This document shows positions 15,666 to 60,635 of a stretch of DNA of 64,000 nt, piece after piece. Origin of the DNA: an uncultured Dehalococcoidia bacterium (GTDB lineage Bacteria > Chloroflexota > Dehalococcoidia > SM23-28-2 > RBG-16-64-32); NCBI GenBank assembly GCA_964558415.1, contig CAZLDI010000004.1, forward strand, positions 786-64,785. The letters are read 5' to 3'. The translations under genes and the position numbers were made by a program. The notes under the pieces were generated by a model. It saw only the letters and a program-made list of their open reading frames with translations. It ran no database searches and had not been told where the DNA came from. Position 1 is the stretch's first letter, and every line of letters begins with the position of its first letter.

Positions 15666-15666
15666 G

Positions 15667-26510: not shown

Positions 26511-26567
26511 GTCTCTGCCTAGCTTAGCTCGACGCTTTGGGCCATAATGTTACGTAAAGGGGGTGCG

Positions 26568-27686
26568 ATGACGGACGGCGGATCGGGGGATTATCAGGAG
26601 CGGGAGAACACAGCGTTCGCGCCGACGCCCCGCAACGTTGAGGCGTACGTGCACCAGGAGAGAGTGCGCACGATCCACTATGGCATCGGCGCGATCGGCG
26701 CGGAGGTCGTACGGGCCGTCCTGGAGGGGCCCGAGGTTGAGATCGTGGGCGCCATCGATGCGAACCCGGCGGTCGCCGGACGGGACCTGGGGGACGTCGC
26801 CGGATTGGGTCGCAGCCTGGGCGTCACGGTGTCCTACGACGCGGACGCGCTCCTGAACGATGTGTATGCCGACGTTGTAGTGCACTGCACGGGGTCATCT
26901 CTGACGGAGGTGTACCCGCAGATGATGGCGATCCTTGCGGCCGAAAAGAGCATTGTCTCAAGCTGTGAGGAGCTGTCGTTCCCCTTTACGAGGTATCCCG
27001 AAATCTCGCAGAAGCTGGACCGGCGGGCCCGCGATCACGGGGTGCGAGTCCTGGGCACGGGCGTCAATCCGGGCTTTGTGATGGACCTGCTGCCGCTTGC
27101 GCTGGCGACGGTTAGCCGGCAAGTCAAGTCCGTTCACGTTCAGCGAGTGGTTGACACCTCGACGCGACGAATGCAGTTGCAGCGGAAGACCGGTGTGGGG
27201 CTGAGTGTGAAGGCGTTCCAGCAGGGGGCGAATTCCGGCGGCATCGGCCATGTGGGCCTGCGGGAGTCCGCGCTGATGGTTGCCGACACGATGGGATGGA
27301 AGCTGGACGACGTTTCAGAGACGCTGGAGCCGGTGATCGCGCCGGAGCGGCGTCAGAACGAGTACTTCTCAGTGGAGAAGGGCTTCGTGATGGGGCTACG
27401 GCAGTCGGCGGTGGGCGTGATGGGGCGGCGCGAGGTGGTGAGGCTGGACCTGGAGATGTCCCTCGGGGCAAAGGACCCGAGGGACATCATCGAGATTGAC
27501 GGCCGCCCGCCCGTGAAAGTGATGATCCCCGGGGGAATCGCCGGAGATACCGCCACGGCTTCGATCATTGCGAACTGTGTGCCGGCGCTGGCTCGCAGCA
27601 GGTCTGTGGGTCTGCTGACGATGAGAGACCTCCCGCTGGCACCATACTACCGCCCACGCTCCCAATCGCGCGACGACCTGCGTTAA
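26568..27686 (+). CDS. Dihydrodipicolinate reductase-like NAD(P)-binding protein (DapB N-terminal domain family, amine dehydrogenase-like)
   Basis: IHYGIGAIGAEVVRAV Rossmann motif. The ~370-aa architecture is typical of the DapB-like family. Confidence 0.7.
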   Translation: MTDGGSGDYQERENTAFAPTPRNVEAYVHQERVRTIHYGIGAIGAEVVRAVLEGPEVEIVGAIDANPAVAGRDLGDVAGLGRSLGVTVSYDADALLNDVYADVVVHCTGSSLTEVYPQMMAILAAEKSIVSSCEELSFPFTRYPEISQKLDRRARDHGVRVLGTGVNPGFVMDLLPLALATVSRQVKSVHVQRVVDTSTRRMQLQRKTGVGLSVKAFQQGANSGGIGHVGLRESALMVADTMGWKLDDVSETLEPVIAPERRQNEYFSVEKGFVMGLRQSAVGVMGRREVVRLDLEMSLGAKDPRDIIEIDGRPPVKVMIPGGIAGDTATASIIANCVPALARSRSVGLLTMRDLPLAPYYRPRSQSRDDLR

Positions 27687-27712
27687 TTCGCGGGAAATTT
27701 CCTTCGCCGATC

Positions 27713-27976
27713 GTGTATCCGACTGACGGTTCGAGCGTCTTACTTGCTAGGATGTGTCGTCATCGCGGGGAGCTCGGCGTTCGTTGGGACTACTTGACCC
27801 AGGATGAGACCGTGGGGACAGGCTGGATAGTCTGCCTCGGCTGCGAGTCACGCGTGGAGCGCATAACTGTGGCGGGGGGCAGATTTCGCGGTAGCGGGCG
27901 GTTCCTGGCGGCGTTTCAGGAGCAGATTTCGGAACAGAACGCCTTTGCGGGCCTGCGCGAGCTGGAGGTGGACTAG
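27713..27976 (+). CDS. Hypothetical small protein
   Basis: ORF only. WIVCLGCESRVE hints at a Cys pair. Confidence 0.25.
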   Translation: MYPTDGSSVLLARMCRHRGELGVRWDYLTQDETVGTGWIVCLGCESRVERITVAGGRFRGSGRFLAAFQEQISEQNAFAGLRELEVD

Positions 27977-28242
27977 TCGGGGTCCGGCAGCTGACTCTCG
28001 CTGCCGACCAGGTCGGGCATGGCGACCTCTTCCACCTCGTCCAATACTGATGAGTCGTCCTTGGCGCCGTTGGTGAAGATCCGGATGCCGACTATCGCCG
28101 CGCCAGTACTGACGACAATGGCGAGGGTCAGCGCGCCATTCCATTCAAGTGCCATCTATTTCGCAGCTTAGCCCTGCGCTAGTGACCCGTCAACGAATCC
28201 TCATGTAGCCGCGCGACTCGTGGCTCTGCTATTCTCTGTGCC

Positions 28243-29601
28243 GTGGCCAGGCCAAAGACGATACTCGGCACCTACAACCGCCTGCACCGGATTTCGCGGC
28301 GTTTGTACGAAGAGGCGCAGCAGCTGTTCCCATCTGGGGTCACTCATGACGTTCGTTATGTATCTCCGTTCCCGATCTACGTCGATCGCGCTCACGGCAG
28401 CCGCAAGTGGGACGTGGACGGGAACGAGTACGTCGACTACACGATGGGACACGGCGCGCTCTTCTTAGGGCATGCCCACCCGCGCGTCACGCAGGCCGTG
28501 GCGGAGCAGGCGTGGAAGGGGACGCACTATGGAGCCAATCACCGCCTGGAGATGGCATGGGGGCGGCTGGTCAGCGAGATAGTGCCGAGCGCGCAGGTCG
28601 TGCGCTTCACCAGCTCCGGCACGGAGGCGACGCTGATGGCGATCCGGCTGGCACGCGCGTACACCGGACGCGACAAAGTACTCAAGTTCGATCACCACTT
28701 CCACGGATGGCATGACGCAGTCTCCGGCGCGCGCTCCGCGGAGTCCGATTCTCCTCACGCAGCAGGGGTCCCCGAGAGCGTCTCTGGCAACACGCTGAGT
28801 GTGCCGCAAAACGACGTTGGCGCGGTGAACGAAAAACTTGCCGTCGGCGACGTCGCCGCCGTCATCATCGAGCCGACGGGCGCGTCCTGGGGGACGCTAC
28901 CGCTGGATGGTCAATTCCTGGCAGACCTGCGGGACGTGACCGAGCGACATCATACGGTGCTAATCTTCGATGAGGTTGTCACCGGCTTCCGCGTCGCGCC
29001 CGGGGGAGCCCAGGAGCGCTATGGCGTCACGCCCGATCTGACTACTCTTGCAAAGATCCTGGCGGGCGGGCTTCCGGGCGGGGCGGTCGCCGGGAAGGCG
29101 GACATCATCTCAATGATCGAGTTCCGCGATGACGCGGCGTGGAACGCCGAGCGTCGCGTGCAGCATCCGGGGACGTTCAACGCGAACCCACTTTCCGCAG
29201 CGGCCGGAGTCGCGATGCTCTCGATGGTCCAGACGGGCGAGCACCACGAGCATGCGGACGCCCTGGCGGGTCGCCTCGTGCCCGCGCTCAACAAGGTACT
29301 TGCGCGGACCGGGGTTGCGGGAGCGGTGTACGGCCTGGCGTCCTATTTCCACATCGTGCTCGGTCATGAGGTTGCCCGGCCCAGCGACAGCATCGAATGG
29401 CCCTCGACCAACGGCACACCACCGCGGATGTCCGGTGCAATCGCAATGGCGCTCAAGAAGGCGATGCTCAACCGCGGCGTTGACCTGATGGGCGGAGCCG
29501 GAGGATTTGTCTCCGGCGTGCATACAGAGACCGACACCGACCTAACAGTAGACGCGTTTGAGGGCGCCGTGACGGACCTTCGGAGAGAAGGACTACTCTA
29601 A
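28243..29601 (+). CDS. Class III (GSA-aminomutase-like) PLP-dependent aminotransferase
   Basis: DVDGNEYVDYTMGHGALFLGHAHP and the VIFDEVVTGFR PLP-binding region. Confidence 0.85.
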   Translation: MARPKTILGTYNRLHRISRRLYEEAQQLFPSGVTHDVRYVSPFPIYVDRAHGSRKWDVDGNEYVDYTMGHGALFLGHAHPRVTQAVAEQAWKGTHYGANHRLEMAWGRLVSEIVPSAQVVRFTSSGTEATLMAIRLARAYTGRDKVLKFDHHFHGWHDAVSGARSAESDSPHAAGVPESVSGNTLSVPQNDVGAVNEKLAVGDVAAVIIEPTGASWGTLPLDGQFLADLRDVTERHHTVLIFDEVVTGFRVAPGGAQERYGVTPDLTTLAKILAGGLPGGAVAGKADIISMIEFRDDAAWNAERRVQHPGTFNANPLSAAAGVAMLSMVQTGEHHEHADALAGRLVPALNKVLARTGVAGAVYGLASYFHIVLGHEVARPSDSIEWPSTNGTPPRMSGAIAMALKKAMLNRGVDLMGGAGGFVSGVHTETDTDLTVDAFEGAVTDLRREGLL

Positions 29602-38202: not shown

Positions 38203-39336
38203 CTAGACCAACTGACCCCGCTCTGGCACCTCGTAGCGATCGAGCTTCTCCTCATCTAGCTCAATCCCCAAGCCGGGGCCCTGTGGCAGCTGCACGTATC
38301 CCTCGGAGTCAATACGCAAAGGCTCCTTGAAGATGAAATCGCGGTCCTCCGGCATCCAGTTCGGTGGGTCGTAAGGGAATTCGATGTACGGGACACGTTC
38401 CCCGGCCGCTGCGCAGTGCAGATTGGCGACCATGCCGATGCCGTTGGTCCATGTGTGCGGAGTGAAGACCTTGCCCGCACTCTGCACCATCGCGGCGATC
38501 TTGCGGGTCGTAGAGATGCCCCCGATGAACGTGCAGTCCGGTTGGTAGACGTCGAAGCAGCCCTTCTCCAGATAGATCCTGATCTCTTCCGGGCCGCGGT
38601 TCAGCTCACCGCCCGCCAGCCGCAGGGTAGTCAGCCGGGACCGCAGTTCCGCGAGCCCTTCGTAGTCGTAGGCGTCCAGCGGTTCCTCCAACCAGTACAC
38701 GCCGTAGTCCTCCATCGCCTTTGCGGCGTAAATCGCTGTCTTGAGGTCCCAGCGGTGGGGCTGCCGGTCAGGTACAATGCGCCAACCCCAGTTGGCGTCC
38801 ACCATGATATCGATGTCGTTGCCGACGGACTTACGCACCGCCGCCAGAGTCTTGATGTCGTCGCGCACGTCCGGGCTGTGAAAGCGCAGCTTCATTGCCT
38901 TGAATCCCGCTGCCACCGTTTGCTGAGCCGCGTCTACCCGCGGGCCGGTCGTTCGGCACTCGCCGCTGGAGGCGTACGCCTTGAGCTTCGACGAACCGCC
39001 GCCCAACAGCTTGTAGATCGGTTGGCCCGTCGCTTTGCCGATGATGTCCCACAAAGCGATCTCGACCGGCCACGGTCGCCCGACGAAGAACGCCATGGAG
39101 CGGAGATTCGCCACGTGCTGCTCGATGTCGAACGGGTCCTGCCCAGCAAGAAACAGACCCGCCACCTCCCAGCGCACGGGCACGCCGCCCGAGCCGATGC
39201 CGACGATACCCTCGTCAGTGTGCACCTCAACCATGTGGATGCGTGCGTTAACGGTCGGAAGCGGCTGCCACGTTGGATGGAAGGGTTTCGGCATCGGATA
39301 TTCGAAGAGACGGACCTTGACCTGAGTGATCTTCAT
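38203..39336 (-). CDS. Mandelate racemase/muconate lactonizing enzyme family (enolase superfamily) protein
   Basis: An N-terminal capping domain and a TIM barrel with conserved metal-ligand spacing. Confidence 0.85.
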   Translation of the reverse strand: MKITQVKVRLFEYPMPKPFHPTWQPLPTVNARIHMVEVHTDEGIVGIGSGGVPVRWEVAGLFLAGQDPFDIEQHVANLRSMAFFVGRPWPVEIALWDIIGKATGQPIYKLLGGGSSKLKAYASSGECRTTGPRVDAAQQTVAAGFKAMKLRFHSPDVRDDIKTLAAVRKSVGNDIDIMVDANWGWRIVPDRQPHRWDLKTAIYAAKAMEDYGVYWLEEPLDAYDYEGLAELRSRLTTLRLAGGELNRGPEEIRIYLEKGCFDVYQPDCTFIGGISTTRKIAAMVQSAGKVFTPHTWTNGIGMVANLHCAAAGERVPYIEFPYDPPNWMPEDRDFIFKEPLRIDSEGYVQLPQGPGLGIELDEEKLDRYEVPERGQLV

Positions 39337-39467: not shown

Positions 39468-40397
39468 CTAACCCTTCGACGACTCCAGCTTGGCCTTGAA
39501 CACCGCCTTCTGGGTATCGAATTCCTCGCGCGCTTTCGCGATTTGCTCGGGCGTCAGGTCCAGGCGGTAGAAGTCCTCCTTCCACAACGAGTCTTCGGAC
39601 CAACGGTAAGGCGATTGCACCGTCGTACGAGGCGCGCGCGCCGCTTCAAGCAGGTCGAGCGCCATCGCGACCAAGCCTCGTTGGCTTTCCAGATCGCCCG
39701 GCTTCCCGCAGGAGTTCCCCAGCGGGAAGTCGCTGAAGAGGAATCGGGCAACACCGGCGTGCTCGACAATGTCGCGGGCGCAGCCCATCACCACCGTGGG
39801 GATGCCGTTTGCTTCGAGGTGGCGGGCAGTCAGACTCACGGTCTGGTGGCAAACCGGTCAGGTCGCAACCAAAATCGCCACATCTATGCCATCCTCACGG
39901 CACATGTCGAGAATTTTCGGGGCGTCGCGTTCGGTGGTAAGACGCCGACTGCGGAGCGTGGGTACTGCGTAGAACCGGCTGTTGAGCCCACCCATTCGCC
40001 CGGCGGCCGCCGCTTCCTTGAGCCGCTGGAGGGGAAAGTAAGAGTTGATATCTTCGGCTGAGGTGTGCTTGCGATCGTAGCCGAGGTGGGCGATCCGGAG
40101 GTCCGGCGAGGAGTCGATGGGCATGCTGTAGACCTCGGTGAACTTCGCCGAAGCGTTATAGGGAGCCCATGGACCCTGGTCGCCGGCGTCCGGCTTGAAA
40201 GGCGCAGCAGTGGTGATCAGGCCCACATGGCTGCGAGTCAGAGGCCTGGTCAAGGCTACGAATGGCACGTCCCGGTTCTGCGCCCAGCGGTACGGGTTGT
40301 CGTAGCCCAGAGCCAGGTAATAGGCGCGGGAACGGTCGATGTAGCGAATAGGCAGGTCAAGGACGGCTTCGATTGGTTTCCCGGAAAGCTGGACCAT
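39468..40397 (-). CDS. Glycine/sarcosine/betaine/D-proline reductase selenoprotein B (GrdB/PrdB) family protein, with an in-frame TGA (putative selenocysteine) at 39858-39860
   Basis: The two tracked ORFs (39858..40397 and 39468..39839) are in the same frame. The only thing separating them is the TGA. The joined sequence reads ...GIDVAILVAT-U-PVCHQTVSL..., giving a U-x-x-C redox motif. The downstream ORF has no RBS of its own. Confidence 0.6.
39837..39857 (-). promoter_or_regulatory. Candidate SECIS-like hairpin immediately 3' of the UGA: CGGUUUG-CCAC-CAGACCG
   Basis: A 7-bp stem (including one G-U pair) with a 4-nt loop begins 1 nt after the TGA on the mRNA strand. It is a weak match to the bacterial SECIS element. 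Confidence 0.25.
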
Positions 40398-40495
40398 CAG
40401 CGCAACCTCCGTGCGACAACAAATATACTGCAGGCAGGCGGGTCAGACTAATCCGCTAAAGTAGCGCGAACAGGTTAAAAGAAGGAGACCGTCTC

Positions 40496-41611
40496 ATGCC
40501 CGGACCACTGGATGGCATCCGCGTTCTGGACTTCACGATCGCCCAGCAGGGCCCGTACGCGACGCTCCTGCTGGCGGATATGGGAGCGGAGGTGATTAAG
40601 GTGGAACGCCCCGACTGGGGAGAAGTCGGACGCCTCCTGGGCAAAGCCTATTTCCTGGCGATCAACCGGGGGAAGAAGAGCCTGGCCCTGGACGTGACCA
40701 CGGAAGCAGGGAGGGACACGGCGCTCCGCCTCGCCCGCGGGTGCGACGTAGTGGCGCACAACTTCCGGCCGGGGGTGATGGAGAGGCTTGGCCTCGGCTA
40801 CGACGCGTTCCGCGCCGAAAACTCGGGCATCGTCTACGCCGGTGCGTCCGCCTTCGGGACCAGGGGGCCGATGGGCAAGAAGCCCGGGAACGACATCCTC
40901 GCGCAGGCGATGAGCGGCCTTATGAGCGTCACCGGCGAGACTGAAGCGCCGAACGCCGCCGGGGCGGCCATTGCTGACCACGTTGGGGCGTTGACCTTCG
41001 CGCTTGGCATCGTCTCTGCTCTTGTCTGTCGTGAGCGAACCGGCATCGGACAGCAGGTCGAGACATCTCTGCTGGGAAGCATGCTCGCAGCCCAATCGTG
41101 GGAGCTTACCAGCTTCATGATGTCCGGTCAGAAGCTACCCAAGGCGGGCCGCGGACATACGCACCTCTTCTGGCAGTGGTACACCTATCGCACCGCCGAT
41201 GGCTGGCTGGCCATCGGCGGTGTGGACCCGTCACGCTGGCCGGCGTTCTGCCGCGCGATCGATGCTCCGGAACTCGAAACGGACGAGAAATGGGACGGCC
41301 CGGGGAAGCGTATACGTGACCGCGACGAGCTAAACGCGCTCCTGGACGGGCACCTCTCGACGCGAGCGACCGCGGCGTGGCTTCCGGCGCTCGAGGCGGC
41401 CGACATCTTCTGCGCGCCGGTGCTGGACTACGAACAGGTGGCGCGTGACGAGCAGGTTGCCGCTAACGAATACCTGGCGACGATGGACCATCCGCGAATG
41501 GGCCAAACGCGCGTAGTCTCGTGCCCGATAACCTTCAGCGAGACGCCCGTAGGCCCGCCGGTCCCGGAGCCCGAACTGGGCGAGCACACGGAAGAGGTGC
41601 TGCGCCTGTAG
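40496..41611 (+). CDS. CoA-transferase family III (CaiB/BaiF)
   Basis: MPGPLDGIRVLDFTIAQQGPYATLLLADMGAEVIKVERP. Confidence 0.85.
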   Translation: MPGPLDGIRVLDFTIAQQGPYATLLLADMGAEVIKVERPDWGEVGRLLGKAYFLAINRGKKSLALDVTTEAGRDTALRLARGCDVVAHNFRPGVMERLGLGYDAFRAENSGIVYAGASAFGTRGPMGKKPGNDILAQAMSGLMSVTGETEAPNAAGAAIADHVGALTFALGIVSALVCRERTGIGQQVETSLLGSMLAAQSWELTSFMMSGQKLPKAGRGHTHLFWQWYTYRTADGWLAIGGVDPSRWPAFCRAIDAPELETDEKWDGPGKRIRDRDELNALLDGHLSTRATAAWLPALEAADIFCAPVLDYEQVARDEQVAANEYLATMDHPRMGQTRVVSCPITFSETPVGPPVPEPELGEHTEEVLRL

Positions 41612-41653
41612 AGCTATGGAAATGGCGAGACGGGGCGGCTGAACAACTCGCCT

Positions 41654-42916
41654 CTAACGTTCCTCTCGCTCGCGCACCAGGGGCACCGGGCTCGGGAGCG
41701 GGCCGAAGGCCACCTGCGCCTGCCGCAGCGCCGCTATCTCCGCGTCCGCCAGCCCTAGGAGCTTGCGCAAGACCTCGTCGGTGTGAGCCCCGGCGGTGGG
41801 CGGCGGACCGGAGATGCCGCCGCGGGTGCGGCTCAGCCTCACCGGCGTGTCCGCTATGCGCAGACTGAAGCCGTCCGGATGCGGCACATCCACCAGCATC
41901 TCGCGCGCCTTCACCTGGGGGTGCTCGGCGGCGTGCGGGATGTCGTTCAGAGGGCCGCAGGGCAGGCCAATCGCATCGAACTCACGCAGCCACTCGCCTG
42001 TTGTCTTCTGGCGCAGGGCATCGCTGAGCAGCGGCTCCAGCTCCGCGTGGTGACGAGTGCGCAGGCCGGGCGTCTCGAAACGGGTGTCCCCGATCAGGTC
42101 GCTGCGTCCGATCAGGGCGCAGAAGAGCTCCCACTGGTTCTCGACGCCCCACGACAGCGCGATGACGATCCAGCCGTCCTTTGTGGGGAACGCCTGAAAC
42201 GGCGTCGCCGCGGGGTGGCGCGTGCCGATCGCGCTTGGAACTTCGCCTGTCGCGAAGTAGCGCGCGAAGGCGTTCTCGAGGACGGCGATCTGGCAGTCCA
42301 GCATGCTTATGTCGACCATCTGGCCCGTGTGGCTGTGCACACGCTCATGCAGCGCTGAAAGGATGCCGATGGCGGTATAGAGTCCGGCCGTAATGTCCCC
42401 CTGCGAGTTGCCCGGACGGACCGGGTTGCCACCCGGCTCTCCGGTGATGCTCATAATGCCACCCATGCCCTGGACGATGATGTCTAGCGCGGGGCGGCCG
42501 CGATCCGGGCCGGTCTGGCCAAAGCCGGAGGTCGCCGCGTAGACGAGACGTGGGTTGCGCGCGCTCAACACCTCGTAGCCCAGCCCGAGCCCGTCCATGG
42601 TCCCGGGGGTGAAGTTCTCCATGACCACGTCGGCCTTCTCAACCAAACGCAGGAACAGGTCCTTGCCCTCTACCTTCTTCAGGTCGAGGCAAACGCTTTT
42701 CTTACCACGGTTGATCGAGAAGAAATAGGCGCTCTCATCGCCGATGTACGGTCCCGTCGTTCGAGCGACATCGCCATACGGCGGCTTTTCGATCTTGATG
42801 ACGTTCGCGCCGAGGTCGCAGAGGATCATTGACGCGAACGGGCCGGCAAGGACCCACGTGAGGTCCAGCACAGTGACATCCGTAAGGGGGCCGCGGCGGG
42901 CAATGGGCGGCTTCAT
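41654..42916 (-). CDS. CoA-transferase family III (CaiB/BaiF)
   Basis: GPLTDVTVLDLTWVLAGPFASMILCDLGANVIKIEKPP. Confidence 0.85.
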   Translation of the reverse strand: MKPPIARRGPLTDVTVLDLTWVLAGPFASMILCDLGANVIKIEKPPYGDVARTTGPYIGDESAYFFSINRGKKSVCLDLKKVEGKDLFLRLVEKADVVMENFTPGTMDGLGLGYEVLSARNPRLVYAATSGFGQTGPDRGRPALDIIVQGMGGIMSITGEPGGNPVRPGNSQGDITAGLYTAIGILSALHERVHSHTGQMVDISMLDCQIAVLENAFARYFATGEVPSAIGTRHPAATPFQAFPTKDGWIVIALSWGVENQWELFCALIGRSDLIGDTRFETPGLRTRHHAELEPLLSDALRQKTTGEWLREFDAIGLPCGPLNDIPHAAEHPQVKAREMLVDVPHPDGFSLRIADTPVRLSRTRGGISGPPPTAGAHTDEVLRKLLGLADAEIAALRQAQVAFGPLPSPVPLVREREER

Positions 42917-43557: not shown

Positions 43558-44043
43558 TCAGCCGGGCTTGAAAGGTGGCCTGCCGTCGTCCAGCGGGGCA
43601 ATTGTCACGGCCTCCACATCCACTCCGAATGCGATCCGTCGAGAGATCTCATTGAGGTCGTCTTTCGCGAAGCCGTGGGTGACGAATTCCGTGCGGCTGC
43701 CCTGATCCAGCAGGAAGAGTGTGGGGGTTGCCGCAGGGTCGTAGAGGCGCGAGACGTCGTAACCAGGGGCGTCAATCAACACCGGGCATTCAATCCGCTG
43801 GCGGCGGGCGTACTCGCGCGCCGCATCGGGCGCGTCTTGGGCGATTGCCCACATCTGCCAGCCTGTGGGATATTCCTCAGTCAGGCGATTCAGGTACGGA
43901 AACGTGAGGTCGCACGTGGCGCAGGTGCTCTTGAAGAACACCAGCAAGGCCGGTTCTCCGACGACGGAGTTCGGCAAACGGTATTCACGACCGTCGATGC
44001 CCAGGAGTGTGAAGTGCGGCGCCATGGCGCCGACTTCTAACAA
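43558..44043 (-). CDS. Redoxin/TlpA-like thioredoxin-fold protein
   Basis: ALLVFFKSTCATCDL is a CxxC motif in a thioredoxin fold. Confidence 0.7.
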   Translation of the reverse strand: MLEVGAMAPHFTLLGIDGREYRLPNSVVGEPALLVFFKSTCATCDLTFPYLNRLTEEYPTGWQMWAIAQDAPDAAREYARRQRIECPVLIDAPGYDVSRLYDPAATPTLFLLDQGSRTEFVTHGFAKDDLNEISRRIAFGVDVEAVTIAPLDDGRPPFKPG

Positions 44044-44117
44044 GGTCCAGTCTCGGCCGCTATCATCTCAACCCCTCGCATATAATACCCAGCGAACTCT
44101 CCCATCGGGAAGGCAGG

Positions 44118-45119
44118 ATGACACAAGAGCCCGCGCAGGTGCATGCCCCGGAACTGGCCGGCGGATACTGGGCCAACAGCGAGCAAGTCTCGATAGAGTC
44201 GCTCCGAGGTCAGGCTGTGCTCATCGACTTCTGGGACTACACCTGCGTGAACTGCATCCGGACGCTTCCTTATGTCACAGAATGGCATCGCCGTTACAAG
44301 CAGCACGGCCTTGCCGTGATAGGCGTCCACGCCCCGGAGTTCTCCTTCGCGAAGGAACTGGACGGCGTCAAGCGCGCCATCGAGTCTTTCGGCATCGAGT
44401 ACCCGGTCGTGATGGACAACGGGTATTCCATCTGGCAGGCTTACGCAAACCGCTACTGGCCCGCGAAATACCTGGTGGACAAGGACGGCTACATCCGTTA
44501 CTACCACTTCGGTGAGGGCGGCTACGACGAGACAGAACAGGCCATCCAGACGTTGCTGCGAGAGATCCAACCCGATGCGCAGCTTCCCGATGCGATGCCC
44601 CCCGTGCGTGATTCCGACGCTTCGGGCGCGGTCTGCTATCGCGTCACTCCGGAGCTCTATCTTGGCTACAAGAGGGGCCGCATCGGGAATCCAACCGGGT
44701 ATGTCGAGAAAGAAACGGCAGTCTACAGCGACCCGGGCGCTCACGCCGAGGGTCATTTCTACCTTTCCGGCGAGTGGCGCGCCGACGAGGAGCACGTGAT
44801 GAAGCCGTGGGGTAGCGAGACCGCGAGCGACGTCACTGTGCGATACATGGCCAAGGAAGTCAACCTGGTCATGAACCCGCTCCTGGGGCGGACGTGCCGC
44901 GCTTACCTATCCCAGGATGGGCAGCATCTGCATAAAGAAGACGCGGGCCAAGACGTGGTGTTTGATCAAAACGGCAAAGCGTTCGTCGATGTGGACGCCC
45001 CACGAATGTACCGCTTGGTCAACAATCGCGAAATCGGCAACCACGAGCTGACGGTGTCCACTAGCACGCCGGGCCTCGCGCTCTACGCCTACACCTTCGC
45101 GTCGTGCGTCGTCCCCTAA
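44118..45119 (+). CDS. Thioredoxin-like (redoxin) domain protein with a C-terminal extension
   Basis: VLIDFWDYTCVNCIRTLPYV CxxC motif, followed by a ~180-aa C-terminal domain. Confidence 0.7.
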   Translation: MTQEPAQVHAPELAGGYWANSEQVSIESLRGQAVLIDFWDYTCVNCIRTLPYVTEWHRRYKQHGLAVIGVHAPEFSFAKELDGVKRAIESFGIEYPVVMDNGYSIWQAYANRYWPAKYLVDKDGYIRYYHFGEGGYDETEQAIQTLLREIQPDAQLPDAMPPVRDSDASGAVCYRVTPELYLGYKRGRIGNPTGYVEKETAVYSDPGAHAEGHFYLSGEWRADEEHVMKPWGSETASDVTVRYMAKEVNLVMNPLLGRTCRAYLSQDGQHLHKEDAGQDVVFDQNGKAFVDVDAPRMYRLVNNREIGNHELTVSTSTPGLALYAYTFASCVVP

Positions 45120-54198: not shown

Positions 54199-55866
54199 TC
54201 AGACCGCCGTCGGCGCGCGGTAGTCACCGAAGACCACACGCATGACGCCGCAGATCTCGCCGACAGAGGCGTACGCCTTTACCGCCTCGACGATTGAGGG
54301 CATCAGGCTCTCGGTCCCCCGGCAGGCGTCCTCGAGTCGACGGAGCGAGGCCTCGACGGCTGACTGGTCGCGCCCGGTCCTGACGCGTTTCAGCCGTTCG
54401 ATCTGAGCGCGCTCAGCCTCCGGGTTCACGCGGAAGATCATCTGCGGCTCTTCGTCCTCCTGGCGGAAGCGATTGACGCCGACGATCACCTTCTTGCCGG
54501 CGTCGATTGCCGTCTGGTAGGCGTACGAGGCCTCCTGGATCTCGCGCTGGACGAAGCCCGACTCGATCGCGGCGACTGCGCCGCCCATGTCGAGCACGCG
54601 GTCGAGGTACTCCCAGGCCCTTTGCTCCAGTTCGTCCGTCAGGGCCTCGATGTAGTACGAGCCGGCGAAGGGATCGATCGTGCTGGCGACGCCGCTCTCG
54701 TAGGCGATCACCTGCTGGGTGCGCACAGCAATGCGTTGGGCCTCTTCGGTCGGCAGGGCGAGCGCTTCATCGTAGCAGGAGAGGGCCAGCGACTGCACGC
54801 CGCCGAGAACGGTGGAGAGCGCCTGGAGCGCGGTGCGGATGATGTTCACCTCCGGCTGCTGCGCGGTGAGGGTGGCGCCGCCCGTCTGGACGTGCGTGCG
54901 GAACATCCAGGAGCGCGGGTCCTCGGCCTTGAAGCGCTCACGCATGATCTTCGCCCACATGCGGCGGAGGGCGCGGTACTTGGCGACCTCCTCGAGGAAG
55001 TTGTTCTGTGTATTGAATATCCAGGAGATGCGCGGACCGACTTCATCGACGCTTACGCCCCGTTCCACAGCGGCCTCGATGTAGGCGATCGCGTTGGCGA
55101 AGGTGAAGGCCATCTCCTGGACCGCCGTCGAGCCCGCGTCGCGGATGTGGTAGCCGCTGATGCTGATCGGGTTGAAGCGGGGCAATTCGCGGGCGCAGTA
55201 GGCCATCAGGTCGGCCGCGAGACGGAGGGACGGTTTCGGCGGGTAGATGTAAGTGCCCCTGGCGACGTACTCCTTGAGCACGTCGTTCTGCGCCGTGCCC
55301 GAAACCTGGTCACTAGGCACGCCCTGTTTCTCGCCGACGACGGCGTACATCGCGACCAGCACCGCAGCAGGGGCGTTGATGGTCATCGAAGTGCTGACCT
55401 GATCCAGCGGAATCCCCTCGAACATCGCTTCCATGTCGGCGAGGGTGTCAATAGCCACCCCCACCTTACCGACCTCGCCTTCGGACAGTGGGTCATCGGA
55501 GTCGTAGCCCAGCTGCGTGGGGAGGTCGAAGGCGACTGAAAGGCCGGGTTGGCCCTCCTTCAGCAGGAACTTGAAGCGCTGGTTCGTCTCGTCAGGAGTC
55601 CCAAAGCCGGCGTACTGACGGATGGACCAGAGGCGGCCGCGGTACATGGTCGGCTGAACGCCGCGGGTGTACGGATATTCGCCCGGGTAGCCGATGTCGC
55701 CGTCGTAGTCGCGGCCGTCGTCCCAGGGACCGTAGAGAGGCTTCGATTCAGTTGAGCTGGTGCAGAAGTCAGTGTCCGCACGCTCGCCACCGCGCTCCAC
55801 CGCCTTGCGGTAGCCAGAGTCGAGCCAGCTATCGTGGTCTTGCTTTGGACCGTTGTCCTGTGACAT
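54199..55866 (-). CDS. Methylmalonyl-CoA mutase-family catalytic (large) subunit with no fused B12-binding domain
   Basis: [26 protein letters not shown]...[16 protein letters not shown] is the MCM TIM-barrel domain. The start was moved to the ATG for MSQDNG at 55866. Confidence 0.85.
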
Positions 55867-55954
55867 CTGCGTACCCCCATTAAAGCCCAGCAACAGCAAA
55901 GTTTCAAGGCGACGCCACACCCAAGGAGTATTGTTGAGCTTACGAGGCCTCCGC

Positions 55955-56545
55955 ATGGAACCCACGATAGGCCGACGCCGAAGGATGAGGACCGGAGTCG
56001 TTGTTGCCCTGATGGTTCCACTGATGGTTGCCTTCGTCGCAGCGATACTGGCAGCGCAGGCCGGTCCTCACGACCTTGTGCTGGCGGGGGTGCCGCGGAG
56101 TGTCGTGCAGGGAGTTGAAGTCGTGTCGGACCGCGACGTGGCGGTGACGGCGGATGCAGCCCTGGCGCTGGCCCGAGAAAGGGCGGGGGACCCGAATGCC
56201 GATGTGCGCCAGGTTGTGCTGGGGCGTTACAGCGATCGGTCGTCAGCCGAGCAATGGCGAGAGATGGTGGTATGGTTCGTAAACTTTGCCGATCCCGGAA
56301 GCTTGTCGATGTCGGCTCATTGCGGATTCGAGGCGGATTACTGCAATTGCAACTGGGCCTACCACGCCGGATATGTCGTCGTAGAGATCGATGCAACAGA
56401 CGGGAGCGTGCTCGGCTTATCCTCGGGAGGCGGTTTCATAGATCCGTCGATACCTGCGACCGGCGGTTACCAGCCGACCGATAACGTGCGCGAGCGATGC
56501 CAGCGTCTCCTTGAGGAGCAGCAAGAGATCGGTAACTCTCCTTGA
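55955..56545 (+). CDS. Hypothetical membrane-anchored or secreted protein
   Basis: An N-terminal TM/signal segment [23 protein letters not shown], and a Cys-rich C-terminal part ([12 protein letters not shown]). Confidence 0.45.
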
Positions 56546-56600: not shown

Positions 56601-57629
56601 ATGTACATACTGCAGAAGCTAGGCCGCTTCGTCATCCCGCGCACGGAGCTAACGTATCCCTGCCACCAACTCAAAATGCACCAGAACGCGGCTGTCGCAC
56701 CCGTTGACCAGGTGATGGCCGACTTCGAGGACGCCTGCCCGTACGAATTCAAGGGAGAGGCGAGCCGGGCGACGATGGTGGAGGCGCTGAACAGCGTGGA
56801 CTTCGGCGGGAAGGTGGTTGTGATCCGCCCCAACAATATCCACTCGAAGTACTTCCTTGGAGACATCGAAGCGATCATGCTCGGCGCGGTGGACCGCTTC
56901 CACGGGATAATCCTTCCGAAGACGGAGACGCCGGAGGACATCGTCTTCCTCTCGAGGCTACTCGACGCGATGGAGCAGCGGGCCGGCTGGACGACCCGCG
57001 TTCAGATCGAGGCGCTGATCGAGACGCCGCTGGCAGTGGTGAACGCTTACAGGATCGCGACCGCTTCGGCGCGCATGGCGGGACTGATCTTCGGGATAGC
57101 CGACTTCTCAGCCAGCCTGGGCGTGCGGGAGATGGTGGACGACCAGAACCGCAACTTCCACTACGCCAAGCAGGCGACAGTGGTGGCAGCGAAAGCGGCC
57201 GGGCTGCACGCGGTGGACAACGCTTACCTGCGCATCGTGAGGAAGGACACGCCACCGGACGAGGCGAAGATGATTGAGGCGGGACTCCGAGAAAAGAACG
57301 TGCAGTCGGCAAACCTGGGCTTCGACGGCACGTGGGTGATTCATCCGCAGCAAGCCGAGATCGCTAACGCCTGCTATACCCCCGACGACGAGACGATCGA
57401 GACCCTCAAAGGGGCCGTCGAGGCGTACCACGAGATGGGCGGCGGCTCTATCGTCAATCCGCGCACGGGAGAATTCGACGATGAGGCGACGATAAAAGGC
57501 AAATTGATGGACCTGGCGAAGGCTGCGCAAGGCGGCAAAGTAGATTGGGGCTACCTCTCGGAGATGGCCGCCAAGTCCACCGCCGTGACCGGCTACGACA
57601 TCCTCGCAAAGATGGGCCGTGTGGCGTAG
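56601..57629 (+). CDS. HpcH/HpaI aldolase / CitE family lyase, malyl-CoA (beta-methylmalyl-CoA / citramalyl-CoA) lyase-like
   Basis: AAGGAG RBS then ATG. VDQVMADFEDA...GKVVVIRPNNI...GIILPKTETPEDI aligns with Mcl-type lyases (VDVLCGNLEDA...). Confidence 0.8.
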   Translation: MYILQKLGRFVIPRTELTYPCHQLKMHQNAAVAPVDQVMADFEDACPYEFKGEASRATMVEALNSVDFGGKVVVIRPNNIHSKYFLGDIEAIMLGAVDRFHGIILPKTETPEDIVFLSRLLDAMEQRAGWTTRVQIEALIETPLAVVNAYRIATASARMAGLIFGIADFSASLGVREMVDDQNRNFHYAKQATVVAAKAAGLHAVDNAYLRIVRKDTPPDEAKMIEAGLREKNVQSANLGFDGTWVIHPQQAEIANACYTPDDETIETLKGAVEAYHEMGGGSIVNPRTGEFDDEATIKGKLMDLAKAAQGGKVDWGYLSEMAAKSTAVTGYDILAKMGRVA

Positions 57630-58175: not shown

Positions 58176-59378
58176 GTGCGCTTCTACGAATTCGAAGCGA
58201 AGACCCTGCTCGCGCGGGAAGGCGTGCGCCTGCCAGCCGGTGGTACCGCGAAGACTCCTGCGGAGGCGAAGCGACTGGCGGCGGAGCTCGGCGGGCCGGT
58301 TGTCCTCAAGTCTCAGGTGCTTTCGGGCGGGCGGATGAAAGCCGGCGGCGTGAAGTTTGCGGACACGCCGGAAGAGGCGGCAGACGCCGCCGAAGCGATC
58401 CTGAAGCTGCCGATTCGGGATCAGATGCCGGTCTGCGTCTCCGTTGAAGCAAAGGCCGCAGTCGCGAAGGAATACTACCTGGGTGTGACGTTCGACGGAA
58501 TCGCCAAGCTACCGGTGATGATCTTCAGCGACATGGGTGGCATCGACATCGAGCAGGTCGCAGAGGAGCACCCGGACCACGTCGCGAAGCGCCACTTCAG
58601 CACGTTGACCCCGTTCTCCGATTTCGAGGCGAAGGAGCTCGTGGCTTCGCTGGGGATCAAGGGCAGCGAGCTCACGGCGATCACGGGGACGGTGACGCGG
58701 CTGGTGCAGGCGTTCCTGCGTTACAACCTGACACTGGCAGAGATCAACCCGCTGGGACAGCTAATGGACGGTTCGTTTGTCGCCCTCGACTGCCATCTGG
58801 ATATGGAAGAAGAGGCGCGGGACCGCCACCAGGATGTCCTCGGCGAGCTCGGCATCTCGCCCGATGACGCGAGGCAGGGACGCCCGCCGACGGAGTTCGA
58901 GATGCGGGGCGTGCAAGTGGATACGTCCGATCATCGCGGCGTCGCAGGGCGCGTCGTCGAGTTCGATGGCGATTTGGGCCTGGTGATCGGCGCAGGCGGC
59001 GGTAGCCTGACGATCTTCGACGCTGTGCAGAAGTACGGCGGACGGCCCGCCAACTACTGCGAGATAGGCGGGAACCCGAGTGTGAAGAAGGCGTGCGAGC
59101 TAACGAAGCTGATCCTGAGCAAGCCGGGCGTGAAAAAGATCGCCGTGATCATGAACGTTGTGAGCAACACGCGGGTGGATATAGTGGCCCGGGGAGTGAT
59201 CAAAGGCGTCGTCGAGTCGGGCTTCGAACCGGCCGACAAGATCGCCATCTTCCGCATCCCGGGCGCGTGGGAGCAGGATGGGTTCTCGATCCTGCGGAAG
59301 TACGGAGTGGAGTACTGCGACCGCAGCGTCTCGATGTCGGAGGCGGCGCGACGAGCTGTGGAGAAAGTGGGTGAGTAG
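58176..59378 (+). CDS. Succinyl-CoA synthetase beta-subunit-like ADP-forming acyl-CoA ligase (ATP-grasp)
   Basis: GTG start. The GPVVLKSQVLSGGRMKAGGVKF ATP-grasp domain plus a CoA-ligase domain. Confidence 0.8.
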   Translation: MRFYEFEAKTLLAREGVRLPAGGTAKTPAEAKRLAAELGGPVVLKSQVLSGGRMKAGGVKFADTPEEAADAAEAILKLPIRDQMPVCVSVEAKAAVAKEYYLGVTFDGIAKLPVMIFSDMGGIDIEQVAEEHPDHVAKRHFSTLTPFSDFEAKELVASLGIKGSELTAITGTVTRLVQAFLRYNLTLAEINPLGQLMDGSFVALDCHLDMEEEARDRHQDVLGELGISPDDARQGRPPTEFEMRGVQVDTSDHRGVAGRVVEFDGDLGLVIGAGGGSLTIFDAVQKYGGRPANYCEIGGNPSVKKACELTKLILSKPGVKKIAVIMNVVSNTRVDIVARGVIKGVVESGFEPADKIAIFRIPGAWEQDGFSILRKYGVEYCDRSVSMSEAARRAVEKVGE

Positions 59379-59699
59379 ATGCCGGCCTACGTGATCGCGC
59401 AGATGCAAGTGAACGACCCAGAGAAGTACCGCATGTACGCATCCAGGGTACCGCCGACTGTTGTCGGCTATGGCGGGCGCTTCCTCGTCGCCAGCGACAC
59501 TGCCGACGTCAAAGAAGGCGCGCAGACCTACGCGCGCACCGTGATCGGCGAGTTTCCAACAATGGAGGCGGCCCGAGCCTGGTACGAATCAGCCGATTAC
59601 CAGGCGGTTCTACCGTTGCGGCTAGCATCAACGACCGGAATTCTCTTCATCGTGGAGGGCTTCACGCTGCCTCCCGTAACCGGAGACCAAGTCGAATAA
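59379..59699 (+). CDS. DUF1330 family protein
   Basis: 106 aa reading MPAYVIAQMQVNDPEKYRMYASRVPPTVVGYGGRFL. Confidence 0.65.
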   Translation: MPAYVIAQMQVNDPEKYRMYASRVPPTVVGYGGRFLVASDTADVKEGAQTYARTVIGEFPTMEAARAWYESADYQAVLPLRLASTTGILFIVEGFTLPPVTGDQVE

Positions 59700-59714
59700 C
59701 GCCGCGCTCACGCC

Positions 59715-60635
59715 ATGTCAATTCTGATCGACGAAAACACGACCTTCATCATCCAGGGCATCACCGGCCGCGAGGCGGTGAACATGACGCGCGAGTGCCT
59801 GGACTACGGCTCCAAGGTCGTCGGCGGCGTGACGCCGGGACGCGGCGGCCGCGATGTGTACGGAGTGCCGGTCTACGACACGGTAAAGGAGGTCGTCACG
59901 AAGGAGCGCGTTGATGGCTCCGTGATCACTGTGCCGCCGGCCTTTGTCCGCGACGCCGCGTTCGAGGCGATCGAGAACGGCGTCAAGCTGCTGGTGATCG
60001 TCACGGAGCGTGTGCCGCGCATGGAGATCGCACAGCTCTTGGAATTGGCGCGGCTGCGTGGCACGCGACTCATCGGGCCCAACTGCCTTGGCATGATCAC
60101 GCCGGGTAAGTCGAAGATGGGCGGGATCGGCGGCCCCGCGGCGAACACGCGCCAGGCGTATCGTCCGGGGCACATCGGGGTTATGTCGCGCAGTGGCGGC
60201 ATGACGACGGAGATATCGAACTCACTCACCGCCGCCGGCCTCGGGCAGAGCACTGCGGTTAGCATCGGCGGCGACCCGATCATTGGCTCCACGTACGCAG
60301 AGTTGATGCCGTTGTTCGAGGCGGACCCCGAGACGCACGCTATTGTCATCTACTCCGAGCCGGGCGGTCCCATGGACGCGCAACTAGCTGAGTACGTCAA
60401 GAAGACCAACTCGCGGCTGCCGATCATCGCCTTCATGGCCGGGCGGTTTATGGACAAGATGCCCGGCATGCGCTTCGGCCACGCCGGCACGATCGTCGAG
60501 GGCAAGGCGGACACCGCAGCCGAGAAGATCCGCCGGCTAAATGACGCGGGGATCTCGGTGGCCGAGGAGATCGCGCAGATACCGGAGATGGTCAAATTGA
60601 AGCTGGCATCGACTAAGGAGACTGGAACGAAGTGA
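59715..60635 (+). CDS. Succinyl-CoA synthetase alpha-subunit-like CoA-binding subunit
   Basis: CoA-binding Rossmann domain plus the phosphohistidine-loop region GHAGTIV. Confidence 0.85.
   Translation: MSILIDENTTFIIQGITGREAVNMTRECLDYGSKVVGGVTPGRGGRDVYGVPVYDTVKEVVTKERVDGSVITVPPAFVRDAAFEAIENGVKLLVIVTERVPRMEIAQLLELARLRGTRLIGPNCLGMITPGKSKMGGIGGPAANTRQAYRPGHIGVMSRSGGMTTEISNSLTAAGLGQSTAVSIGGDPIIGSTYAELMPLFEADPETHAIVIYSEPGGPMDAQLAEYVKKTNSRLPIIAFMAGRFMDKMPGMRFGHAGTIVEGKADTAAEKIRRLNDAGISVAEEIAQIPEMVKLKLASTKETGTK

Follow-up and report, generated by a model that had tools for sequence, protein, structure and literature searches.

Is the in-frame TGA at codon 180 of a minus-strand gene from this uncultured Dehalococcoidia bacterium the end of a protein, or does it encode selenocysteine (Sec)? 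Within the 64,000-nt stretch of DNA that was analysed (hereafter the window), the minus-strand frame 40397..39468 comprises 309 codons with one internal stop, the TGA at 39860-39858. This stop separates an ORF of 179 codons with an ATG start (40397..39858), which is preceded, at a distance of 8 nt from its ATG (40397), by the putative Shine-Dalgarno sequence GGAGG (40406..40410, minus strand), from a second ORF of the same strand and frame (39839..39468). The sequence at the interruption reads ...AILVAT-*-PVCHQTVSLTARHLE..., the stop being placed two residues before Cys183 (UxxC). The initial annotation had described this arrangement, namely two ORFs sharing a frame with the TGA as the sole interruption and a putative Sec two residues from a Cys, and had proposed a GrdB/PrdB-family selenoprotein with a U-x-x-C redox pair. 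The joined translation, in which the Sec-spanning peptide is ...DVAILVAT-U-PVCHQTVSLTAR and U180-P-V-C183 is read, agrees with that description, and the proposal is borne out by column homology, by recurrence of the TGA and by selection downstream of it. Judging from sequence comparison, 40397..39468 is very probably one intact selenoprotein gene of the PrdB/GrdB superfamily (39468..40397, minus strand, around 310 aa, Sec180), whose UGA180 would be decoded as Sec via a SECIS element located within the ORF. We give this reading a probability of about 0.93.

What kind of protein does the joined frame encode? It matches the Pfam profile PF07355 (GRDB) with 22 bits, exactly at the gathering cutoff, and the match stops at residue 179, just before the TGA. 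It also matches the NCBIfam models TIGR04483 for PrdB (E 3.7e-25; 88.8 bits, where the equivalog cutoff is 300; positions 20-235 of the 238 in the model) and TIGR01918 (E 2.3e-09; 36.7 against a cutoff of 65.45). With all NCBIfam scores under the curated cutoffs, these profile matches indicate homology at the superfamily level only, and it is at this level that the proposed GrdB/PrdB assignment holds. A homologue search returned 7750 homologues, with full-length relatives 70-79% identical, and an alignment with 25 full-length homologues places U180 in the column of an invariant Cys, the first of the motif C-P-V-C-H-Q. Sec151 of the PGAP-annotated PrdB from Peptoclostridium acidaminophilum shares this same column. 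The UGA codon (39858..39860, minus strand), first position of U-P-V-C, is read as Sec on the basis of these column matches and of its recurrence in relatives. The UGC codon at 39849..39851 (minus strand) encodes Cys183, invariant in two homologue alignments and presumed to be the resolving Cys of UxxC, a role suggested by the literature on UxxC/CxxC redox motifs (PMC1088965). Searches of the PDB gave no matches to the protein, either with the single sequence or with a profile, and fold comparison gave a generic Rossmann-like match only. In the AlphaFold model of a Cys orthologue, the redox pair falls within a Rossmann-like domain, where a beta-strand meets the N-terminus of an alpha-helix.

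Gene callers split the gene into a 179-aa and a 123-aa ORF, and one could imagine that both are translated independently and that the two products then assemble into a split protein. This is exceedingly unlikely, because the GTG 'start' of the downstream ORF has no Shine-Dalgarno-like sequence ahead of it when the sequence is read, as the initial annotation had pointed out, because this ORF would miss the conserved P-V-C-H-Q residues, because in 200 or more homologues the break coincides exactly with the column of the redox Cys, and because the hairpin described below covaries as an RNA element. Also, TGA is the ordinary stop of 21 of the 61 window genes, and therefore it has not been reassigned genome-wide. 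The only other same-frame ORF pairs of the window that are split by a TGA (13251/13247 and 35517/35536) turned out to be ordinary adjacent genes with their own starts, and were discarded as further selenoprotein candidates.

Any lone in-frame stop in a MAG may be suspected of being a sequencing or assembly error, in this case of a TGC or TGT codon in an ordinary Cys homologue. Nothing specific speaks for such an error here, and it can practically be dismissed: a JGI metagenome contig, which has 3 mismatches in 4424 nt, all at other positions, shows the identical base, as do diverged relatives and a Logan assembly made from a different run, and the codon is accompanied by an AGT typical of TGA forms. 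Indeed, the same TGA is found in L001, L002, L181 and P0122-P0125, and all four sequences that cluster with the N-terminal ORF at 90% identity likewise end in ...AILVAT. A scan with the pattern TGA-CCN-GTN-TGY-CAY-CAR... recovered at least 120 species genomes from many phyla, among them that of the cultured Enhydrobacter aerosaccus ATCC 27094, where a calculated 0.01 or so would be expected by chance; all matches had homologous open frames on both sides of the TGA, save where the fetched stretch ended first. When metagenomes were scanned for TGH, without bias towards any of the three codons, the 120 matches comprised 80 TGA, 30 TGC and 10 TGT. The TGA is real and conserved, and its column is homologous with the Sec column of bona fide PrdB.

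Could the TGA instead be a nonsense mutation that has killed a Cys-type gene, so that a 179-residue fragment or nothing is made? A single C-to-A change in a TGC codon suffices for this. The closest full-length relatives, P0001-P0005 (75-79% identity), are Cys forms, and L243 has TGC; moreover, Sec machinery is not seen in the window and the SECIS core is short. Nevertheless, a pseudogene is very unlikely, as the initial annotation had supposed. Besides the genomes recovered by the pattern scan, no fewer than three diverged lineages within the clade retain the TGA, namely those of the window, of L181 and of P0122-P0125. The part downstream of the TGA is under purifying selection: L181, with 91% amino-acid identity, has kept the TGA together with an identical SECIS, and over the 129 codons that follow it differs from the window by 20 synonymous and 9 non-synonymous changes, with no indel and the same stop position. 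For this downstream part dN/dS comes to 0.12, against 0.13 for the upstream part, and neutrality is rejected with a binomial p of 4e-7. Furthermore, the window has the Sec-type codon set, including the rare AGT, that is missing from the Cys forms. A random nonsense mutation at this site would be roughly a 1-in-309 event, since it would have to hit the one codon of 309 that matches the invariant redox Cys. The Cys forms among the nearest relatives indicate that Sec and Cys interconvert in this clade.

How would the ribosome distinguish this UGA from a stop? RNAalifold found a consensus hairpin in 197 unique TGA forms and none in 40 Cys forms. In the window, the core of this putative SECIS (39831..39845, minus strand) consists of a stem, CAGAC/GUCUG, at nt 16-20 and 26-30 (numbering starts at the U of UGA), and the loop CGUGA at nt 21-25. 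The helix spans nt 14-32 in most family members (39847-39829 in the window, where the two outer pairs are C.A and A.C mismatches), and across 119 Sec forms 93.9% of its cells are paired, compared with 14-35% in slid controls. Double-change cells numbered 59, against 19.9 +/- 3 in shuffled alignments (0/500), and the covariation score of the Sec forms was 0.210, against 0.101 in shuffles (0/500). Compensatory changes were seen at the pairs 15-31 (CG 68, UA 36), 19-27 (AU 95, UA 11) and 18-28 (GC 104, AU 9). In the 40 Cys forms, the same helix is 67.9% paired and there is no excess covariation. The CAGAC-CGUGA-GUCUG hairpin is specific to TGA forms and covaries. Loop nucleotides G22 and U23 are invariant in the 119 aligned Sec forms; two metagenome Sec forms differ.

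The hairpin also leaves its mark on codon choice, as it forces the rare Ser codon AGT in TGA forms. This codon, which makes up only 5% of the Ser codons in the window's own genes, is used by 141/144 Sec forms versus 3/24 Cys forms (p = 1e-20), and the Val codon GTG by 168/197 versus 5/40. The five codons of the window favour the Sec-type pattern by a factor of about 10^3, whereas the syntenic Cys orthologue L243 combines TGC with AGC. The element is conserved across phyla and dictates the peptide H-Q-T-V-S-L.

The bSECIS consensus model for bacterial SECIS elements (Zhang and Gladyshev 2005, summarised in PMC13188914) specifies a loop of 3-9 nt, an upper stem of 4-16 bp, 16-37 nt from the UGA to the loop and a minimum free energy of -7.5 kcal/mol or lower; position 1 or 2 of the loop is to be a G, after which G or U is usual. 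The window hairpin agrees with this model in its 5-nt loop CGUGA, in its stem (5 bp, up to 7 bp in the family), in the G-U at loop positions 2-3 and in the 17 nt (nt 4-20) that separate the UGA from the loop. As to energy, the core taken alone reaches -5.6 kcal/mol, above the -7.5 specified, the family median being -9.2. With only the 5-bp core, it ranks among the weakest 11% or so of Sec forms, because codon 190 is ACT. A lower stem specific to the window (nt 1-12 with nt 49-58) brings the value to -12.2 kcal/mol; as this stem is absent from the family consensus, we do not claim it as part of the SECIS. Rfam reported no SECIS or other family at the site, either with the whole window at gathering thresholds or with 39700-39950 at E up to 10. 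The window element resembles the SECIS of the E. coli fdhF type in being a stem-loop that follows the UGA closely within the ORF and whose small apical loop bears G-U at positions 2-3 (PMC13188914). In sequence, the fdhF element is unrelated to the short, weak core found here. The stem begins 10-12 nt after the UGA, similar to the minimal fdhF element, in which the spacing is 11 nt.

The initial annotation had located a different hairpin, CGGUUUG-CCAC-CAGACCG, right after the UGA, where a SECIS would sit. This structure (39839..39856, minus strand; nt 5-22 after the U of UGA) is indeed part of the minimum free energy fold and competes with the SECIS, with which it shares the CAGAC arm. However, it was rejected as the SECIS itself, because it pairs to a similar extent in Sec forms (84%) and in Cys forms (74%) and does not covary; the fold of this region has no stability beyond that of shuffled sequence (z = -0.08). 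Its pairs come from invariant coding positions, and the hairpin is probably a side effect of encoding the conserved P-V-C-H-Q-T. The true element overlaps it, 12 nt further 3'.

Which machinery would serve this element? As had been remarked from the letters, the window contains no obvious Sel genes: selA, selB, selD and tRNA-Sec were all missing from the 64 kb, ARAGORN and Rfam detecting 3 ordinary tRNAs only and Pfam no Sel protein among 30 suitably sized window proteins. A tRNA scan of 46 related loci likewise found no tRNA-Sec gene nearby in any of them (46/46), and hence the missing genes are uninformative. They would also agree with a loss of selenophosphate synthesis, after which the UGA would be recoded in a SECIS-dependent manner to a residue other than Sec (e.g. 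Cys via a UCA-anticodon tRNA) or passed by low-level near-cognate read-through, and the ready interchange of Sec and Cys forms in the clade fits this too. We consider this highly improbable, since the window has no UCA-anticodon tRNA, selection acts on the SelB-type hairpin and its GU loop, as the standard Sec pathway predicts, and the use of Sec in this family is well established (PMC1088965, PMC2398784). The TGA is almost certainly a real selenocysteine codon.

A model of Sec decoding and of the subsequent chemistry can be outlined. The SECIS hairpin within the coding sequence (stem nt 16-30, loop C-G-U-G-A) would direct decoding of the UGA: once this codon occupies the ribosomal A site, the hairpin would be at the mRNA entry and its GU-containing loop would be bound by SelB-Sec-tRNA(Sec). 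In the protein, Sec180 and Cys183 would form the U-x-x-C pair. By analogy with PrdB and GrdB, the selenol would attack the substrate, Cys would resolve the adduct as a selenenyl-sulfide, and a thiol or thioredoxin system would re-reduce the latter. That this organism actually inserts Sec is inferred, as are the chemistry and the substrate.

To which known selenoproteins does the gene correspond? A 'PrdB, UxxC' selenoprotein family was reported in the Sargasso Sea survey with a Sec:Cys ratio of 42:1 (Zhang, Fomenko and Gladyshev 2005, PMC1088965), and 'PrdB' in the GOS survey with 235 Sec to 110 Cys (Zhang and Gladyshev 2008, PMC2398784), a proportion with which our 80 TGA to 40 TGY agree. That environmental family and the window gene have the same Pfam assignment and U-x-x-C motif, Sec forms outnumber Cys forms in all three scans, and both groups occur in aerobic, non-clostridial bacteria; as far as these accounts describe the family, there is no essential difference. 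By Pfam assignment, motif and Sec:Cys ratio, the window gene is a member of it. The SECIS consensus of the family, the missing PrdA partner and the CoA-transferase neighbourhood are not described in the accounts of the family that we cite from these two surveys.

The resemblance to the D-proline reductase PrdB of Stickland-fermenting clostridia (Kabisch et al. 1999, cited in PMC13188914) is more distant. Homology extends over nearly the whole TIGR04483 model, with Sec in the same column followed by x-x-C-H, but identity is around 28%, the window protein is some 70 residues longer, the SECIS sequences differ and the host is probably an aerobic member of the Chloroflexota. In P. acidaminophilum a PrdA-like ORF lies directly upstream of prdB, whereas no gene for a PrdA pyruvoyl proprotein adjoins the window gene. 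The latter thereby differs from a bona fide PrdAB system, in which prdA is adjacent and prdC/D/E/F lie nearby, and it does so also in its score below the TIGR04483 cutoff. As for GrdB/GrdF/GrdH (PF07355, TIGR01918), the C-terminal 160 or so residues of the models align to window residues ~95-252. Both GrdB and the window protein carry UxxC (PMC2398784), but the latter is devoid of the N-terminal ~260 residues of GrdB and scores below the family cutoffs, and grdA and grdE were not found beside the gene.

What, then, might the protein act upon? Its downstream same-strand neighbour (38203..39336, minus strand) encodes an MR_MLE protein of the enolase superfamily, nearest to acid-sugar dehydratases by Pfam and NCBIfam, below equivalog cutoffs; it is also present in the loci of the Cys orthologues P0001, P0002 and P0004, so that synteny is kept. 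A family III CoA-transferase (40496..41611, plus strand; PF02515, E 1.4e-111) is transcribed divergently, and Pfam and NCBIfam identify a second one in the cluster (41654..42916, minus strand). By NCBIfam, the transferases are nearer to dicarboxylate types (succinyl-CoA:mesaconate, succinate-glutarate, oxalate), below cutoffs. The remaining window neighbours are His_Phos_1, AhpC-TSA and a zinc-finger protein. CoA_transf_3 is the commonest neighbour type of the family (36 of 240 loci; 19 of the 64 whose flanks reach 2.5 kb or more on each side), and operon links to family III CoA-transferases, acyl-CoA dehydrogenases and enoyl-CoA hydratases recur. None of 10 neighbour families checked by Pfam, nine of them among the largest in the 240 loci, was PrdA-, GrdE- or GrdA-like. 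Betaine or proline-betaine reduction, which CaiB-type transferases together with the MR_MLE neighbour might have suggested, was not adopted, given the nearer affinities of these proteins to dicarboxylate transferases and acid-sugar dehydratases. Having no PrdA partner, the protein does not act on D-proline via PrdA, and its neighbourhood points to organic-acid/acyl-CoA metabolism. On account of the recurrent operon links and, in the clade, of the enolase-superfamily enzyme, we offer as a tentative idea, possible though rather unlikely, that the stand-alone 'PrdB-like' proteins of around 310 residues might be a separate class of Sec/Cys-dependent reductases in aerobic bacteria, which would not be proline reductases, would work without a pyruvoyl (PrdA/GrdE) subunit and would take their substrates from organic-acid/acyl-CoA metabolism. 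A literature search found no characterised substrate or reaction for the 'PrdB-like' family, and nothing relevant on 'PrdB-like' or 'GrdB-like' selenoproteins.

The gene is genuine but ordinary, its family having been recognised in metagenomes of ocean and soil as early as 2005; this family is a reasonable target for enzymology, and the present finding opens no new question about it. Annotators should treat the gene as intact and merge its two ORFs over the TGA, with residue 180 given as Sec; gene callers have cut short not only this gene but every member of the cluster that its N-terminal ORF forms at 90% identity. The codon signature TGA ... CAG ACC GTG AGT CTG picks out the Sec forms of the family reliably. 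The finding would imply that the organism uses selenium, and it extends the known carriers of this selenoprotein family, which is among the most abundant in the environment, by what is probably a Tepidiformales-like lineage of Chloroflexota.

The window gene reads as one frame on the minus strand, with 309 codons open from ATG 40397 to TAG 39470-39468 and TGA 39860-39858 (codon 180) as its sole internal stop, as the initial annotation had described. A Shine-Dalgarno-type GGAGG lies 8 nt 5′ of ATG 40397. No GGAGG-like signal precedes GTG 39839, where ORF finders start the second half, in agreement with the earlier view that this downstream ORF has no ribosome binding site of its own. Around the stop, the read-through product is ...DVAILVAT-U-PVCHQTVSLTARHLEANGIPTVVMGCARD... 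Membership of the GrdB/PrdB family is upheld, at the level of homology, by two profile matches: PF07355 (Pfam GRDB), which sits at the gathering cutoff and ends at residue 179, just before the TGA, and TIGR04483 (NCBIfam PrdB), which spans nearly the full model with an E value of 3.7e-25, yet falls far under the equivalog cutoff. A protein collection search returned 7750 homologues, the best being about 310 residues long and 70–79% identical, two of them named Tepidiformaceae (Chloroflexota). Aligned with 25 homologues, the TGA occupies the column of the invariant Cys of C-P-V-C-H-Q. Given the conserved TGA, this Cys/Sec column and the covarying SECIS described below, it is very probable (roughly 0.93) that this is a genuine selenoprotein gene, with Sec two residues from a Cys as first proposed.

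Could the TGA be a read error for TGC or TGT? An identical 179-residue N-terminal ORF with the same TGA end is present in two other assemblies, a JGI metagenome contig (3 of 4424 positions differ from the window) and the Logan assembly of run SRR6155509, and all four further members of its 90%-identity cluster (JGI, ENA) end in ...AILVAT. A sequencing error, the refutation initially envisaged, does not fit this recurrence in other assemblies and relatives. Neither does a recent nonsense mutation leaving a pseudogene, since the TGA is kept in relatives with purifying selection past it. Indeed, in the metagenome contig L181, whose protein is 91% identical to that of the window, the TGA is kept and the next 45 nt are nearly unchanged; over the 129 codons after the TGA there are zero indels, a common stop, and 20 synonymous and 9 non-synonymous differences. 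The dN/dS is 0.12 after the TGA and 0.13 over the 150 codons before it, and a binomial test of the post-TGA part against the neutral expectation gives p = 4e-7. This part is thus under selection and therefore translated in both lineages, which bears out the early doubt about a Cys-to-stop pseudogene. As TGA is the ordinary stop of 21 of the 61 called window genes, the genetic code is not reassigned.

The selenoprotein reading extends to the family. A scan of 185,579 species, each represented by a single genome, with the pattern TGA-CCN-GTN-TGY-CAY-CAR plus the conserved L..R.LE..G positions, for which we calculate about 0.01 chance matches (20 fixed and 7 two-fold positions, 1.2e12 sites), gave at least 120 loci with TGA at the redox codon. 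In 120 of the 120 matches listed a homologous frame is open on both sides, save where the fetched stretch ends first, with an upstream part of about 160–200 residues ending ..D.A.LVP[LVTS] and a downstream part of about 125–135 residues. Hosts among these matches are Gamma-, Alpha- and Deltaproteobacteria, Acidimicrobiia, Dehalococcoidia and other Chloroflexota, Methylomirabilota, Rokubacteria, Binatia and Myxococcota, and include the cultured Enhydrobacter aerosaccus ATCC 27094. When JGI metagenomes were scanned with TGA, TGC and TGT all allowed as the first codon, the first 120 matches comprised 80, 30 and 10 of these, respectively. Just ahead of the redox site (window 39861-39866; alignments A3 and A4, related loci L003-L242), Cys forms almost always carry Asn (V-P-N-C-P-V-C-H-Q), and Sec forms Leu, Val, Thr, Ser or Met; the window's clade has V-A-T ahead of both U and C.

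A SECIS is found directly downstream of the redox motif. The Q-T-V-S-L codons after C-H are nearly fixed in TGA forms as CAG ACC GTG AGT CTG, with AGT for Ser in 141/144 Sec forms against 3/24 Cys forms (Fisher p = 1e-20) and GTG for Val in 168/197 against 5/40. From 197 unique TGA forms RNAalifold predicts a single hairpin with loop C-G-U-G-A, in which nt 15–20 pair with nt 26–31 (numbering starts at the U of UGA); from 40 Cys forms it predicts no structure. In Sec forms (119 genome sequences) 93.9% of cells are paired, against 67.9% in Cys forms, the slid-register controls giving 14–35% and 15–37%, respectively. Cells changed on both sides number 59 in Sec forms (shuffles 19.9 ± 3; 0 of 500 reach 59) and 4, without excess, in Cys forms. 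Compensatory pairs in Sec forms are 15–31 (C-G 68, U-A 36), 19–27 (A-U 95, U-A 11) and 18–28 (G-C 104, A-U 9). Pair 15–31 ties the synonymous choice of His codon (CAC/CAT) to base 1 of the Val/Ile/Thr codon that follows five codons later, and across L003-L242 this His codon covaries with Val/Ala against Ile/Thr there. The exchange of A19-U27 to U19-A27 shows in the protein, as Q-T-V-S-L (CAG ACC GUG AGU CUG) versus Q-S-V-G-L (CAG UCC GUG GGA CUG); in these alignments (window 39831-39845; L003-L242), the SECIS stem shapes the protein sequence. The stem starts 10–12 nt downstream of the UGA; in the minimal fdhF element of E. coli the spacing is much the same, 11 nt.

In the window the consensus core is exact (39845-39831, minus strand), the two outer pairs being mismatched because codon 190 is ACT. 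The core alone folds at -5.6 kcal/mol, among the weakest 11% or so of Sec forms, and this core-only architecture is common to 11 other Sec forms and L181. Only 5% of the Ser codons in window genes are AGT, and the window's five codons favour the Sec-type profile about 10^3-fold over the Cys-type one. The family hairpin agrees with the bacterial SECIS consensus set out in PMC13188914 in its loop G-U, its 5-nt loop and the 17 nt between UGA and loop. The window alone can also form a lower stem, pairing nt 1–12 (UGACCGGUUUGC) with nt 49–58 (GCAAACGGCA) (39803-39860; -12.2 kcal/mol with the hairpin forced), which is absent from the family consensus.

The initial annotation had placed the SECIS in a hairpin at nt 5–22, which shares its CAGAC arm with the real, covarying one 12 nt further downstream. 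It pairs invariant coding positions, G-U-N-U-G (Val-Cys) with C-A-G-A-C (Gln-Thr); its pairing is 84% in Sec forms and 74% in Cys forms, 40–50% of sequences leave its variable third-codon positions unpaired, and its covariation equals the shuffled expectation. The lack of covariation and the similar pairing in Cys forms rule it out as the SECIS. A ribosome with the UGA in its A site would also cover most of its 5′ arm.

A syntenic Cys orthologue (L243, 76% identical) lies in a related genome, where the flanking genes match those of the window from the luciferase-like oxidoreductase through the acyl-CoA dehydrogenase. There (L243:10001-10933; ENA ERZ25039602 contig_3036, 2.78 Mb) CAG ACC GTG ... 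CTG is retained with TGC and AGC, and the stem is thereby broken. This looks like a SECIS starting to decay after a Sec-to-Cys switch, a pattern implying that Sec and Cys forms interconvert within the window's clade. For P0002, the syntenic Cys orthologue, AlphaFold2 gives a confident model (pLDDT 93, pTM 0.92), in which the Cys in place of Sec lies where strand 174–178 ends and helix 182–197 begins, as is usual for CxxC redox motifs.

As first remarked, tRNA-Sec, SelA, SelB and SelD are absent from the 64-kb window, and it contains no further candidate Sec codons; the only RNA genes detected in it are a tRNA cluster (Leu-TAG, Lys-CTT, Val-GAC; 843-1213). The absence of sel genes says little, since 0 of 46 related loci have tRNA-Sec nearby and such genes are therefore not expected beside selenoprotein genes. 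We infer that the organism decodes Sec.

None of PrdA, GrdE and GrdA neighbours the window gene. Downstream of it, on its own strand, lies a gene for an enolase-superfamily protein; upstream are those of two family III CoA-transferases, and at greater distance those of a histidine phosphatase, thiol-disulfide oxidoreductase-like proteins and an F420-type LLM oxidoreductase. In 240 related loci, family III CoA-transferases are the most frequent neighbours (36 loci; 19 of the 64 whose flanks reach at least 2.5 kb on each side), mostly directly downstream on the same strand, followed by acyl-CoA dehydrogenase, enoyl-CoA hydratase, SDR, TctC-type binding protein and AMP-dependent ligase. Genes for organic-acid CoA metabolism are plentiful in the window (14454-16875, 40496-42916, 54199-55965, 56601-57629, 58176-60635, 63009-63890): four family III CoA-transferases, methylmalonyl-CoA mutase, HpcH/malyl-CoA-lyase-like and mesaconyl-CoA-hydratase-like proteins and, judged from sequence only, succinyl-CoA-ligase-like subunits. 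This set calls to mind pathways of the 3-hydroxypropionate or ethylmalonyl type. At a distance of about 10 kb from the selenoprotein gene, a 2,4-diaminopentanoate-dehydrogenase-like gene (DAP_DH_C) adjoins a class III aminotransferase (26547-29601), both enzymes of ornithine/diamino-acid catabolism. Some 3–5 kb away lie two thioredoxin-fold thiol-disulfide oxidoreductase-like genes (AhpC-TSA/Redoxin; 43558-45119), one with a C-terminal Thioredoxin_10 domain; synteny of the AhpC-TSA gene is kept in Cys-orthologue loci, and, speculatively, their products might reduce the U-x-x-C centre. On Roseomonas haemaphysalidis plasmid p546-2 (L246:4968-7353) a Cys-form member of the family and a gene annotated as protein adenylyltransferase SelO are arranged tail-to-tail; the SelO family itself includes selenoproteins in eukaryotes.

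The family has been met before. In Zhang, Fomenko and Gladyshev (2005, PMC1088965), 'Proline reductase PrdB, UXXC' is the third most abundant Sargasso Sea selenoprotein family (42 Sec, 1 Cys forms), and for GOS Zhang and Gladyshev (2008, PMC2398784) give 235 Sec against 110 Cys forms under pfam07355, a ratio of about 2:1 equal to the 80:40 among our JGI metagenome matches listed. The label 'PrdB, UXXC' has also been applied to Anaeromyxobacter and Geobacter genes, and in NCBI and JGI the Cys homologues go by 'glycine/sarcosine/betaine reductase selenoprotein B family protein' or 'PrdB'. The shared label, pfam07355 and Sec:Cys ratio place the window gene in this known selenoprotein family. True prdB genes were recovered by tblastn against annotated plasmid records. 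The PGAP-annotated prdB of Peptoclostridium acidaminophilum has its in-frame TGA at codon 151 (FTAG-U-GTCH), and pairwise alignment puts this Sec151 in the same column as U180 (ILVAT-U-PVCH). However, the proteins are only about 28% identical, a PrdA-like ORF lies directly upstream there whereas the window gene has no PrdA neighbour, and the window gene scores 88.8 bits against the TIGR04483 equivalog cutoff of 300. The window gene is a PrdB homologue that shares the position of the catalytic Sec, and should not be filed as a D-proline reductase.
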